Source of the DNA: Escherichia coli
GTDB lineage: Bacteria > Pseudomonadota > Gammaproteobacteria > Enterobacterales > Enterobacteriaceae
NCBI RefSeq assembly: GCF_003334405.1
Contig: NZ_QOWM01000019.1
Length of the DNA: 60,909 bases
Reading direction: 5' to 3' (one strand)
Of this stretch, positions 39,001 through 54,000 are shown piece by piece. The position numbers were made by a program. The number at the start of each line of letters is the position of its first letter. Within the stretch, counting starts at the first letter, position 1.

Positions 39001-42000
39001 GACAGGTTAGCAAACTTTAATACGCCGAACCCCTGTTTTGATCAACTCCTGATGATTAATGAGCAGTTTTATGAGAAAAGTGTGGCGCGGATCATGGTTT
39101 AATCGAGGAAAAACGCCTTTTCCTGGATCATAAAGTGGTAGAACACATTGCATTCAAATCGCGCGTAATGAATAAAGATGTCAGACAACTTCCTCACCGT
39201 AACGCATAGTGCTGGTACGGTTGCGCCCATCTTTCTTCGAGCGATACAGACACGTATCGGCTTCGACCATCAATTTATTAAAGTCATCGGTCAGCGTTAG
39301 GTACGATGCGCGACCACTACCGACGCCAATACTTACCGTGAGATAAAGCGTTTTTTGTTGCCAGGTGAATGGTTGCAGTTCAACGCCTTTACGGATTTTT
39401 TCCGCCATTAGCAGACCATCGACAGGATTCACCGACGGCACTGCAACAGCAAATTCTTCGCCGCCCATTCGCGCCACCAGCCCCTTATCACCGACAATCT
39501 TCTGAATATGCCGGGCAAACACGCTTAACACTTTATCGCCACATTCATGTCCATAGTTATCGTTAATGCTTTTGAAATAGTCGATATCAAGCAGCATGAC
39601 AGTCAGATGTTGTGTCTGTTTCAGCGATGGACTTTTCAGCGCCTCATAAAGACCGGACCGTGAGTAAACCTGAGTCAGAAAATCAAAGTCGGCTCGCAGC
39701 GCAACTTGCTTCATTAGCGAATTGATCGCTGCCACGCTAAAAGAAACCATAATTGGGCATATCGCCATCGTGGCAATACCGAGACGTGCGGAGAACATTT
39801 GCGGAATGGAGAACGGCGAACCGACCGAGATATCAATCACCGAATTTGCCACCAGTACGATTTCCACCGCACCGGTGACAAAGGTCAACAGACATGTTAC
39901 CTGCGGCGTATAGCGCACTGCACACCAGATTAATGCAGGCAGCGGGAACGCCAGACTCCCCGCTCCGCCAATGACTACCGAGGCAATAACCGACACAATA
40001 AGCGCGATGGCGGGCATCATCTGTTCTGCTTTAAAGCGCGGCAGCACTCCAGGAATAGCCAACGTCAGCATACAAGGCACGATCAACACGCCCGTTGAGA
40101 ATTGCTCACTGAACCAGTCCGCAAGCAAAGGCCAGAAATCCAGACTATCAATACTGACCGAACCAAGATAGCATGTTCGCTGACAGCGGCGGCAAATAAA
40201 GGTACCCTGGGAATGCTATTTTGTCGTTTTCCGCAATTCTCATGGCTGATTCATCTGTACAACCAGCCAGTGATAGATTACCGCCACGATATAACGTTGT
40301 TGTTCTTCGCTTAACGAAACACCCTGCGGAATGTTATGCCACTTAGCCAGACAACCGCGACAGCAGGTCGCGGTGGCGTGCTGAGCGATAAACACCGGAT
40401 GCCCGCGCATGGGGGTTTGCTTACCGTCATTAGCCGGTAATGCCGGAGCAAGACGTTTAGCGACAAAATCCGCCGCATGTTGTTCGATGACTGGCGCGCC
40501 TTTCTCCAGGCAATACTGACGCTCTTTCATGCCCAGACGAAAGCGAGAGCGAAATTTTGAACGGAATAAACGCGCGAAGAGTGGATCGAGAGACTGCATT
40601 AATAAACCGAACGCCCTAACTGTTTCGTCAATTGTTCAAGGACGGCAATACCCGCAAGCGAGTTACCTGCATCATCCAGTTCCGGACTCCAGACAGCGAT
40701 GGCCATTTCATGCGGAACAATCGCCACAATACCGCCACCAACGCCAGATTTCGCCGGTAGCCCCACCCGCCAGGCAAACTCCCCCGCGTTCTGGTACATA
40801 CCACTGGTCGCCATCAGCGCGTTAATTTGCCGCGCCTGCATTGGCGTCACCACTGGTTCATCAATATGAATAGCTTTCCCCTGATTAGCCAGAAAGACAA
40901 ACGTCCGGGCCAGCTCTACACAGCTCATTTTCAGAGCGCAGTAATGAAAGTAGTTTTGCAGAACGGTTGTCACGTCATGATGGAAATTGCCAAACGACTT
41001 CATCAGCCAGGCGATAGCCGCATTTCGCGCGGAATGTTCAAATTCGGAACGCGCTACCACCGTATCGTAGGAAATATCAGACACACCGCTTAAGCCGCGC
41101 ACGACTTCCAGCATACGTTGCCGTGGTGCGCTTAATCGCCCTTGCAACATATCGCAGACCACCAGCGCACCGGCATTAATGAACGGATTACGCGGTATAC
41201 CCTGCTCCATTTCCAGTTGCACTAAGGAATTGAACGGTGATCCAGACGGATCTTTGCCGACGCGTTGCCAGATTTCCTCTTCGGAGTAATGACGCATGGC
41301 GACAACGAGACTCAGCACTTTGGAAATAGACTGAATGGAAAAACGTTCTTGCGCGTCTCCGGCCTGAAAAAGCTGTCCGTCAACGGTACAGATAGCAATC
41401 CCCAATCGGGAACCGTCTACTGTAGCCAGCGCCGGAATATAATCCGCGACTTTACCCTGACCAATGAGCGGCCGCACTTGCCGCAAGATGTTTTCTAAAA
41501 TTGCATTATCCATGGCGACTGCCACTTTCTACTCCTGGACCGCAGGTCTGAAAAGACCTGCGAGTATATCAGAGCTGAATATGTCGCGTCAGATCCGGTC
41601 TTTCCACACCGTCTGGATATTACAGAATTCGTGTAAGCCGAAATGGGAAAGCTCACGACCAAAGCCACTCTTTTTCACGCCACCAAAGGCCACTCGCGCG
41701 TCGCTGGCACAATAACCATTGATAAACACCCCACCGCATTCCAGACGTGCCGCCATCTGTCTGGCCTGTGTTTCGTCAGTGGTAAAAATGGTCGCTGAAA
41801 GGCCGAACTCACTATCATTAGCCAGTTCCAGTGCATGTTCTGCATCTTTCGCAATGGTGATTGCCGCAACGGGGCCAAACATTTCTTCCCGAAACGCGGT
41901 CATTTCTGGGGTAACATTCGCCAGAACCGTTGGCGGATAGTAGTTACCTGCCCCAGCCATCTTTTCCCCGCCCAGTAACAAACGCGCACCCTGCGCCAGG

Positions 42001-51000: not shown

Positions 51001-54000
51001 AAATGGGATGACTAATGAACGGAGATAATCCCTCACCTAACCGGCCCCTTGTTACAGTTGTGTACAAGGGGCCTGATTTTTATGACGGCGAAAAAAAACC
51101 GCCAGTAAACCGGCGGTGAATGCTTGCATGGATAGATTTGTGTTTTGCTTTTACGCTAACAGGCATTTTCCTGCACTGATAACGAATCGTTGACACAGTA
51201 GCATCAGTTTTCTCAATGAATGTTAAACGGAGCTTAAACTCGGTTAATCACATTTTGTTCGTCAATAAACATGCAGCGATTTCTTCCGGTTTGCTTACCC
51301 TCATACATTGCCCGGTCCGCTCTTCCAATGACCACATCCAGAGGCTCTTCAGGAAATGCGCGACTCACACCTGCTGTCACGGTAATGTTGATATGCCCTT
51401 CAGAATGTGTGATGGCATGGTTATCGACTAACTGGCAAATTCTGACACCTGCACGACATGCTTCTTCATCATTAGCCGCTTTGACAATAATGATAAATTC
51501 TTCGCCCCCGTAGCGATAAACCGTTTCGTAATCACGCGTCCAACTGGCTAAGTAAGTTGCCAGGGTGCGTAATACTACATCGCCGATTAAATGCCCGTAG
51601 GTATCATTAACCAATTTAAATCGGTCAATATCCAACAACATTAAATAAAGATTCAGAGGCTCAGCGTTGCGTAACTGATGATCAAAGGATTCATCAAGAA
51701 CCCGACGACCCGGCAATCCCGTCAAAACATCCATATTGCTACGGATCGTCAGCAAATAAATTTTGTAATCGGTTAATGCCGCAGTAAAAGAAAGCAACCC
51801 CTCCTGAAAGGCGTCGAAATGCGCGTCCTGCCAGTGATTTTCAACAATAGCCAGCATTAATTCCCGACCACAGTTATGCATATGTTGATGGGCAGAATCC
51901 ATTAGCCGAACGTAAGGTAATTCATCGTTATCGAGTGGCCCCAGATGATCAATCCACCGACCAAACTGGCACAGTCCATAAGAATGGTTATCCGTTATTT
52001 CTGGCTTACTGGCATCTCTCGCGACCACGCTGTGAAACATACTCACCAGCCACTGGTAGTGGGCATCGATAGCCTTATTGAGATTTAACAAGATGGCATC
52101 AATTTCCGTTGTCTTCTTGATCATTGCCACTCCTTTTTCACAGTTCCTTGTGCGCGCTATTCTAACGAGAGAAAAGCAAAATTACGTCAATATTTTCATA
52201 GAAATCCGAAGTTATGAGTCATCTCTGAGATAACATTGTGATTTAAAACAAAATCAGCGGATAAAAAAGTGTTTAATTCTGTAAATTACCTCTGCATTAT
52301 CGTAAATAAAAGGATGACAAATAGCATAACCCAATACCCTAATGGCCCAGTAGTTCAGGCCATCAGGCTAATTTATTTTTATTTCTGCAAATGAGTGACC
52401 CGAACGACGGCCGGCGCGCTTTTCTTATCCAGACTGCCACTAATGTTGATCATCTGGTCCGGCTGAACTTCTCGTCCATCAAAGACGGCCGCAGGAATAA
52501 CGACATTAATTTCACCGCTCTTATCGCGAAAAACGTAACGGTCCTCTCCTTTGTGAGAAATCAAATTACCGCGTAGTGAAACCGAAGCGCCATCGTGCAT
52601 GGTTTTTGCGAAATCAACGGTCATTTTTTTTGCATCATCGGTTCCGCGATAGCCATCTTCTATTGCATGAGGCGGCGGTGGCGCTGCATCCTGTTTTAAA
52701 CCGCCCTGGTCATCTGCCAACGCATAAGGCATGACAAGAAAACTTGCTAATACAATGGCCTGAAATTTCATACTAACTCCTTAATTGCGTTTGGTTTGAC
52801 TTATTAAGTCTGGTTGCTATTTTTATAATTGCCAAATAAGAATATTGCCAATTGTTATAAGGCATTTAAAATCAGCCAACTAGCTGTCAAATATACAGAG
52901 AATTTAACTCACTAAAGTTAAGAAGATTGAAAAGTCTTAAACATATTTTCAGAATAATCGGATTTATATGTTTGAAAATTATTATATTGGACGAGCATAC
53001 AGAAAAAGCAAATCACCTTTACATATAAAAGCGTGGACAAAAAACAGTGAACATTAATAGAGATAAAATTGTACAACTTGTAGATACCGATACTATTGAA
53101 AACCTGACATCCGCGTTGAGTCAAAGACTTATCGCGGATCAATTACGCTTAACTACCGCCGAATCATGCACCGGCGGTAAGTTGGCTAGCGCCCTGTGTG
53201 CAGCTGAAGATACACCCAAATTTTACGGTGCAGGCTTTGTTACTTTCACCGATCAGGCAAAGATGAAAATCCTCAGCGTAAGCCAGCAATCTCTTGAACG
53301 ATATTCTGCGGTGAGTGAGAAAGTGGCAGCAGAAATGGCAACCGGTGCCATAGAGCGTGCGGATGCTGATGTCAGTATTGCCATTACCGGCTACGGCGGA
53401 CCGGAGGGCGGTGAAGATGGTACGCCAGCGGGTACCGTCTGGTTTGCGTGGCATATTAAAGGCCAGAACTACACTGCGGTTATGCATTTTGCTGGCGACT
53501 GCGAAACGGTATTAGCTTTAGCGGTGAGGTTTGCCCTCGCCCAGCTGCTGCAATTACTGCTATAACCAGGCTGGCCTGGCGATATCTCAGGCCAGCCATT
53601 GGTGGTGTTTATATGTTCAAGCCACGATGTTGCAGCATCGGCATAATCTTAGGTGCCTTACCGCGCCATTGTCGATACAGGCGTTCCAGATCTTCGCTGT
53701 TACCTCTGGAAAGGATCGCCTCGCGAAAACGCAGCCCATTTTCACGCGTTAATCCGCCCTGCTCAACAAACCACTGATAACCATCATCGGCCAACATTTG
53801 CGTCCACAGATAAGCGTAATAACCTGCAGCATATCCGCCACCAAAAATATGGGCGAAATAACTGCTGCGATAGCGTGGCGGTATAGCAGGAAGATCCATA
53901 TTTTCCGCCACCAGCGCCCGCAATTCAAAATCATCGACATCCTGCATTGCTTCGTTTTCTTCCAGGCAATGCCAGCGCATATCGAGAAGTGCGGCGCTAA

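Follow-up and report, generated by a model that had tools for sequence, protein, structure and literature searches.

Small RNAs (sRNAs) such as MicL in cutC and DapZ in dapB are transcribed from their own promoters in or at the end of an upstream gene, with which they share a terminator. In Escherichia coli K-12, the diguanylate cyclase gene dgcZ (ydeH, b1535) is followed by the sRNA gene mgrR (b4698) and the convergent small-protein genes mgtS and mgtT (b4599 and b4775), and another cyclase gene, dgcF (yneF), is 5′-truncated, has a misannotated start and is not expressed in strain W3110 (Richter et al., 2014; PMC4287979). Here we analyzed these genes in a stretch of 60,909 nt from contig NZ_QOWM01000019.1 of the E. 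coli assembly GCF_003334405.1, hereafter the window. The original prediction held that dgcF and dgcZ are two GGDEF cyclases of different sensory type in one window and that dgcZ is interlocked with a PhoP-type sRNA promoter, which suggested possible cross-talk between envelope-stress signaling and the control of cyclic di-GMP (c-di-GMP). Our analysis makes it probable that the window contains three independent known units: a dgcF remnant, an intact dgcZ gene, and an autonomous PhoP-dependent mgrR gene whose terminator is probably shared with dgcZ.

The mgrR locus resembles MicL and DapZ in that the upstream coding sequence (CDS) runs into a promoter element and in that dgcZ has no terminator of its own, so that MgrR is predicted to form the 3′ end of its mRNA. 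Unlike in those cases, the overlap is confined to the final sense codon and the stop codon of dgcZ, the dgcZ-mgrR co-transcript is a prediction, the overlap is not conserved beyond Escherichia, and the mgrR promoter is kept with ydeI upstream in Salmonella. The window is colinear with the K-12 MG1655 chromosome (window coordinate = K-12 coordinate − 1,571,726). The dgcZ-mgrR-mgtS/mgtT genes have the same order, strands, 45 nt gap, PhoP box at −52 to −36 and terminator as in K-12; nothing of substance is different, and this is the same locus in another strain. The dgcF allele shares the 498-bp deletion junction and the 315-codon open reading frame (ORF) starting with TTG with the 5′-truncated K-12/W3110 yneF allele (PMC4287979), with no differences. 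The stretch holding the dgcF remnant, dgcZ and mgrR is ordinary E. coli chromosome with features already annotated or described, and their re-identification matters little in itself.

The PhoP box of mgrR covers the dgcZ stop codon

The K-12 annotation, carried over to the window, places the 98 nt MgrR at 51091–51188 (−), and the Rfam family STnc560 (RF01407, which is MgrR) was matched over the full model length at 51009–51222 with 281 bits against a gathering score of 55. The PhoP box of the mgrR promoter, AGTTTA-AGCTC-CGTTTA, lies at 51224–51240 (−), corresponding to −52 to −36. It includes the direct repeat GTTTAAGCTCCGTTTA of the form GTTTA-N6-GTTTA at 51224–51239 (−), i.e., −51 to −36 relative to the MgrR start at 51188. 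This position in the window agrees with the PhoP motif at −52 to −36 that is given for mgrR in the part of PMC8313858 quoting Moon and Gottesman. Exact matches to GTTTA-N6-GTTTA were found three times in the window against 0.19 expected, while a strict KGTTTA-N5-KGTTTA consensus with one mismatch allowed misses the mgrR box, whose K positions are A and C. A putative −10 hexamer, TACTGT, can be read from the sequence at 51195–51200 (−; −12 to −7), and the intrinsic terminator at 51091–51117 (−) consists of an 8-bp stem (51117–51098) and a U8 tail. PhoPQ is reported to be required for mgrR transcription (PMC5736990), and mgrR is most likely an autonomous PhoP-activated sRNA gene. Both the PhoP dependence of MgrR and its binding to Hfq are known from published work (PMC8313858, PMC5736990).

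The two other exact GTTTA-N6-GTTTA repeats of the window are intragenic and have no obvious promoter role; they are located in an IS3-family transposase gene (18450–18465, −) and in an ECSE_1600-family autotransporter gene (21852–21867, −), respectively.

At the junction, the minus strand reads AAC CGA GTT TAA GCTCCGTTTAAC, in which the PhoP box covers codon 296 of dgcZ, the last sense codon, and the stop codon TAA at 51234–51236, and MgrR starts 45 nt downstream of this stop codon. The predicted overlap of the dgcZ end with a PhoP-type sRNA promoter is therefore real, since the box at 51224–51240 contains the stop codon. A promoter overlapping the upstream coding sequence, as in type I 3′UTR-embedded sRNAs, is represented here by the PhoP box lying on dgcZ. 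The arrangement is nearly invariant: a 216 nt query comprising the dgcZ 3′ end and MgrR was contiguous in 5414 of 5426 E. coli genomes with at least 95% identity.

The first terminator downstream of dgcZ is that of MgrR, which is also the sole terminator-like site on the minus strand beyond the dgcZ stop codon. A scan of the minus strand between 50700 and 52500 returned only one other match, a weak hairpin close to the start of the dgcZ CDS that was judged spurious. By Term-seq, a minus-strand 3′ end was mapped at K-12 position 1622824, which is the MgrR terminator (Adams et al., 2021). Because no terminator separates dgcZ from mgrR, dgcZ transcripts most likely continue over the mgrR promoter as far as the MgrR terminator. 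In practical terms, deleting or tagging the 3′ end of dgcZ hits the PhoP box of mgrR, and a deletion of mgrR leaves dgcZ with no terminator downstream. A phenotype ascribed to one of the two genes may therefore stem from the other.

dgcZ encodes an intact zinc-binding cyclase

The dgcZ gene (51234–52124, −) is intact and encodes a CZB-GGDEF protein of 296 aa, which shares 99% identity with the main cluster of E. coli. DgcZ scored 522 bits against the NCBIfam equivalog NF007380 (cut-off 256) over residues 1–296 of 296 and matched the YdeH/DgcZ structures PDB 4H54 (E = 8e-203), 3TVK and 3T9O. The GGDEF domain (PF00990, E = 6e-45) carries the active-site motif RYGGEEF from residue 204 (51489–51509, −), and the CZB zinc-binding domain (Pfam PF13682, E = 8e-7) spans residues 22–89 (51858–52061, −). 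All four residues which we take to be the zinc ligands of the 4H54 structure, H22, C52, H79 and H83, are present in the window. The CZB match, these four residues and the equivalog score bear out the earlier assignment of dgcZ as a cyclase with a zinc-sensing N-terminal domain and an RYGGEEF motif.

Sites for CpxR, CysB and CsrA are attributed to the 5′ regulatory region of dgcZ by RegulonDB, as quoted in a passage of PMC13131220, and a regex search for the canonical CpxR box GTAAA-N5-GTAAA upstream of dgcZ gave no match. The documented envelope-stress input to dgcZ is CpxR at the 5′ end, not at the 3′ end of the gene. Like the proposed cross-talk, the CpxR link joins an envelope-stress two-component system to the same cyclase, but it differs in acting at a 5′ regulatory site and in involving neither PhoP nor the 3′ overlap.

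MgrR, encoded directly downstream of dgcZ, is an activator of LEE, the locus of enterocyte effacement, via GrlA. In enteropathogenic E. coli, a plasmid carrying N-terminally deleted dgcZ unexpectedly turns on LEE/type III secretion system genes (PMC13131220); MgrR is unmentioned in that account.

dgcF is a truncated remnant

The dgcF (yneF) remnant at 39181–40167 (−) comprises 328 codons homologous to residues 145–472 of full-length DgcF. Alignment of the window and of K-12 MG1655 against the full-length locus gave the same deletion junction, which lies at 40166–40167 in the window. The missing 498 bp consist of 65 nt upstream of the ATG, codons 1–144 and 1 further nt. The ORF annotated in K-12 starts with TTG at 40128 and encodes 315 aa (39181–40128, −), and PGAP/RefSeq annotates dgcF here as a pseudogene, 'missing N-terminus'.

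Full-length DgcF is a 472-aa protein in E. coli (a cluster of 9487 sequences) and E. fergusonii, and a protein search retrieved orthologs of 478–482 aa in Citrobacter and Enterobacter; the full-length 472-aa form is the ancestral one. Enterohemorrhagic and enteroaggregative E. coli carry this form, unlike the window and K-12, as do 77% of the complete genomes: the segment lost here is present in 4197 of 5426 (~77%). The allele without the segment is thus in the minority (~23%), a figure that counts absence of the lost segment and not the exact K-12 junction. A 70 nt query spanning the junction was unusable for allele counts, as BLAST pieces were joined across the 498-bp gap. In E. coli HS-02 (NZ_CP172818.1, 1573123–1573525), the two halves of this query are 403 bp apart, compared with the expected distances of 70 bp in the deletion allele or 568 bp in the full-length allele, which suggests a third 5′ allele.

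The catalytic part has been spared. Across the common part, the remnant differs from the 472-aa allele at 3 residues and the ORF is otherwise undamaged; its GGDEF domain (Pfam PF00990, E = 3e-40) retains the active site VARMGGEEF, with the RMGGEEF motif at 39445–39465 (−), and no RxxD I-site is found five residues upstream of this motif. The full-size protein has been described to contain a hydrophobic domain of ~300 aa and an intact A-site but no I-site (PMC4287979). Our hydropathy scan of full-length DgcF detected ten overlapping hydrophobic peaks (~seven distinct segments) in the first 300 residues, of which three (22–40, 92–110 and 132–150) are within the deleted part, so that the N-terminal hydrophobic domain is incomplete. 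A native start region is also missing, since the remnant is without the native ATG, the ribosome-binding site and the promoter-proximal 65 nt, and no Shine-Dalgarno-like sequence precedes any candidate in-frame start left in it. Hence the description of dgcF as membrane-anchored with RMGGEEF stands for the motif and the Pfam domain, but not for an intact membrane anchor, given the 498-bp deletion and the pseudogene call.

Judged from its sequence, dgcF in this strain is a promoter-less and start-less remnant rather than an intact membrane-anchored sensor cyclase: its catalytic domain is competent while the native context for expression is gone. A single deletion took the promoter-proximal region, the ribosome-binding site, the ATG and 144 codons, probably leaving a competent GGDEF remnant without native expression. 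Lacking its first 144 codons, start and promoter, dgcF therefore needs additional proof before it can pass for a second functional sensory cyclase, and it should not enter cyclase counts for this strain as a functional sensor enzyme.

The truncated gene could nevertheless serve as a second working cyclase if it were transcribed by read-through from sad-glsB-yneG, with yneG ending 72 nt upstream on the same strand, and translated from TTG 40128 or an internal start. The intact ORF and its close match to the full-length allele agree with this explanation, as does the finding that the 315-aa MG1655 DgcF expressed from pBAD makes c-di-GMP in a GGEEF-dependent manner (PMC11757272); the residue changed by E224A in that study is the third of the GGEEF motif when counted on the 315-aa protein. 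A motility phenotype of a K-12 dgcF deletion is also cited in a passage of PMC11757272. However, the absence of Shine-Dalgarno-like sequences before the candidate starts, the loss of three scored hydrophobic segments of the sensor domain, the pseudogene call by PGAP and the lack of W3110 expression together with the misannotated start (Richter et al., PMC4287979) stand against it. We consider a working dgcF unlikely here, though it would be compatible with either view of the dgcZ-mgrR junction.

dgcF and dgcZ are unrelated neighbors

Searching the long ORFs of the window for GG[DE]EF yielded two motifs only, RMGGEEF in dgcF and RYGGEEF in dgcZ. K-12 has 19 GGDEF-containing genes (PMC11327459), and random placement of 19 genes on 4.64 Mb would give ~0.95 pairs within 13 kb per genome. 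Likewise, 2.6% of 61-kb windows, or ~2 per genome, contain two or more GGDEF genes by chance. The GGDEF domains of DgcF and DgcZ share 31% identity over 180 residues, which argues against a recent duplication, and more than 13 unrelated genes, the mar operon among them, separate the two genes. The phyletic range of DgcF covers Escherichia, Citrobacter and Enterobacter, and that of DgcZ only Escherichia/Shigella and Citrobacter among the best 120 matches. Two GGDEF motifs are thus present in the window as had been noted, but their co-occurrence is no more than expected by chance; it is a coincidence of unrelated neighbors.

The tandem is more widely conserved than the overlap

We collected MgrR loci from species-representative genomes by an exact 20-mer of the conserved MgrR core, 40 nt upstream of which lies the true +1; the 20 loci obtained represent close MgrR variants only, short of more distant genera such as Klebsiella and Enterobacter. 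One of these loci is on a contig labeled MAG: Caldithrix sp., which carries MgrR, mgtS and a ydeE with 99.7% identity to E. coli, and is almost certainly E. coli contamination of that metagenome-assembled genome. Fifteen of the 20 loci have dgcZ as the next upstream gene in the same orientation (57–96% protein identity); they belong to E. coli-like strains, E. albertii, E. whittamii and most Citrobacter. Convergent mgtS was found in 18, with no match at the loci of C. amalonaticus and C. portucalensis, the latter of which ends <200 nt past MgrR. The PhoP box is kept at all MgrR loci examined, and in Salmonella enterica subsp. arizonae, C. braakii and C. amalonaticus mgrR and its box occur without dgcZ. 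In S. enterica subsp. arizonae, ydeI occupies the position upstream of mgrR and mgtS is retained. Since the mgrR promoter is kept with another upstream gene or none, it evidently works without dgcZ.

In the Escherichia and Citrobacter loci, the dgcZ stop codon and the MgrR start are between 24 and 292 nt apart. The Escherichia loci measured span 24–56 nt, with 45 nt in the window and E. whittamii, 56 nt in E. albertii (11 extra nt relative to the window) and 24 nt in strain SCPM-O-B-8794. Distances of 66–78 nt in the C. freundii complex put the dgcZ stop codon 15–27 nt upstream of the PhoP box. Among the other Citrobacter, one has 142 nt, and Citrobacter sp. Awk4 and NCU1 both have 292 nt. No convincing terminator was found between dgcZ and mgrR in any locus scanned, E. 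coli and Citrobacter included. The tandem order and the probably shared terminator are therefore fairly conserved, and the literal overlap of box and stop codon is an Escherichia-specific contraction.

Several loci depart from this pattern. In E. coli SCPM-O-B-8794, the dgcZ stop codon is changed from TAA to TTA, so that the ORF continues for 7 more codons through the entire PhoP box and closes with a TGA, and the first half-site of the box is changed from GTTTA to GTTTT. In E. fergusonii, a PhoP-box-like repeat, TGTTTA-N5-CATTTA, is wholly within the last dgcZ codons. The E. fergusonii loci (L025, 3908–4112; L026, 1211–1415) have ydeE next and no mgtS, their MgrR core is split by a 53 nt insertion, and the MgrR locus is below the Rfam threshold. 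The 292 nt spacer of Citrobacter sp. Awk4 and NCU1 contains a conserved Arg/Lys-rich ORF of ~40 codons (MKLFARRKRQGKRWNRRPE...), which is absent from the other loci.

Compaction or cross-talk at the dgcZ-mgrR junction

The relative strengths of the transcripts bear on the meaning of the overlap. In the Term-seq data, the 3′ end signal of MgrR is 2,434,090, compared with 2,596 for the convergent mgtS and 946 for marB (Adams et al., 2021), i.e., MgrR is ~1000-fold stronger than the neighboring mRNA 3′ ends. Taken together with the requirement for PhoPQ, this indicates that dgcZ read-through adds only trivial amounts of MgrR under those conditions. As dgcZ transcription is far weaker than that of mgrR, occlusion of the mgrR promoter by dgcZ is implausible, and interference could matter only in one direction, with complexes at the mgrR promoter hindering rare dgcZ transcripts.

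We favor the reading in which the three units are independent. In this case dgcZ would be an intact zinc-inhibited CZB-GGDEF cyclase with its known control at the 5′ end (CpxR, CysB and CsrA), and the PhoP box would overlap its stop codon because the Escherichia spacer shrank to 45 nt. MgrR would be made almost entirely from its own PhoP-dependent promoter, and the rare dgcZ transcripts would most likely pass this promoter and stop at the MgrR terminator. Most likely, the overlap results from compaction of the genome and does not serve regulation. The occurrence of mgrR and its box without dgcZ, the drifting spacing, the reported need for PhoPQ and the ~1000-fold 3′ signal weaken the interpretation as cross-talk, and nothing in our analysis speaks for an effect of the overlap on either gene.

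Some observations weigh against this reading. The terminator-free tandem is conserved in 15 of 20 loci (one of the 20 being the contaminant) and in 5414 of 5426 E. coli genomes, and selection for co-transcription, instead of inertia, could be the cause. The box coincides with or sits within the final dgcZ codons in E. coli, E. whittamii, E. fergusonii and SCPM-O-B-8794, so that bound PhoP and RNA polymerase physically stand in the way of dgcZ transcription and of the termination of its translation. The Term-seq tables contain no further minus-strand 3′ end up to K-12 position 1623399 (Adams et al., 2021), but dgcZ is poorly expressed under the Term-seq conditions, which makes the missing second 3′ end weak evidence. 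Finally, the motility phenotype cited for a K-12 strain deleted for dgcF is a hint that the remnant may be expressed to some extent.

The overlap might instead act as a roadblock. At low Mg2+, phosphorylated PhoP and RNA polymerase at the mgrR promoter would block or truncate dgcZ transcription and lower DgcZ and c-di-GMP, and conversely Cpx-induced dgcZ transcription would occlude mgrR. The box covers the stop codon, a terminator would not fit in, all five Escherichia loci examined retain the overlap or come close to it, and the junction hardly varies within E. coli, all of which would suit such a mechanism. On the other hand, the overlap itself is not conserved, as the 11 additional nt of E. 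albertii and the longer spacers of the C. freundii complex and the other Citrobacter demonstrate, and our literature search connected dgcZ/ydeH with PhoP or MgrR only as map neighbors. In general, elongating polymerases with trailing ribosomes usually displace activators, and the low level of dgcZ transcription speaks against the converse effect on mgrR. A roadblock is improbable on this balance. Interference, if caused by the overlap, would speculatively make it a compact case in which a two-component regulator gates a c-di-GMP enzyme through the 3′ end of its gene.

A broader version is similarly doubtful: attenuation or truncation of dgcZ by PhoP at low Mg2+, combined with Cpx-induced dgcZ transcripts that have all of MgrR as their 3′UTR, would link in cis the sensing of Mg2+ and antimicrobial peptides, the MgrR/Hfq regulon and the c-di-GMP-dependent control of biofilm by poly-N-acetylglucosamine (PGA). 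Read-through from mgtS-mgtT, antisense to MgrR and the last 310 nt of dgcZ with a Rho stop at 51544, is a possible further layer of this link.

It is very unlikely that MgrR doubles as the dgcZ 3′UTR, such that Cpx/CsrA-controlled co-transcripts would be processed to extra MgrR or bind Hfq and MgrR targets in cis and thereby couple the fate of dgcZ mRNA to the MgrR regulon, in the manner of 3′UTR sRNAs with an internal promoter of their own: the terminator-free junctions, the sole mapped minus-strand 3′ end being that of MgrR and the tandem order conserved in Escherichia and most Citrobacter are consistent with it, but mgrR transcription is reported to need PhoPQ (PMC5736990), the ~1000-fold excess of MgrR over mRNA ends leaves dgcZ a marginal contribution, the upstream gene in Salmonella is ydeI, the predicted pairing of MgrR with the dgcZ initiation region is no better than with random segments of the window, and MgrR is not among the 3′-end-derived sRNAs of one review.

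Convergent transcripts and gene order

The mgtS-mgtT small-protein operon at 50920–51119 (+) is convergent to mgrR and PhoQP-dependent (PMC11429745), and the 3′ end of mgtT is antisense to the last 29 nt of MgrR. The mgtT ORF (51015–51119, +) ends 41 nt past the main mgtS 3′ end detected by Term-seq (K-12 1622804, window 51078), which directly follows a hairpin at 51041–51075 (region 51041–51083, +). MgtT would therefore be completed only on transcripts reading through this terminator. A Rho-dependent 3′ end at K-12 position 1623270 (+), corresponding to ~51544 in the window, is antisense to dgcZ (Adams et al., 2021), and plus-strand transcripts from mgtS-mgtT apparently extend, in antisense, across mgrR and the final ~310 nt of dgcZ until this Rho stop.

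As a candidate interaction within the locus, pairing of MgrR with the translation initiation region of dgcZ was tried and rejected: the RNAduplex energy, a crude measure for long inputs, was no better than that of 98% of random window segments.

The 12,944 nt span with both GGDEF genes is 100% identical to E. coli ML35, and 5425 of the 5426 complete E. coli genomes have the region from dgcF to dgcZ. According to RefSeq, the gene order in the matching ML35 stretch is dgcF, yneG, glsB, sad, ptrR, yneK, ydeA, marC, marRAB, eamA, ydeE, mgtS, mgtT and dgcZ.

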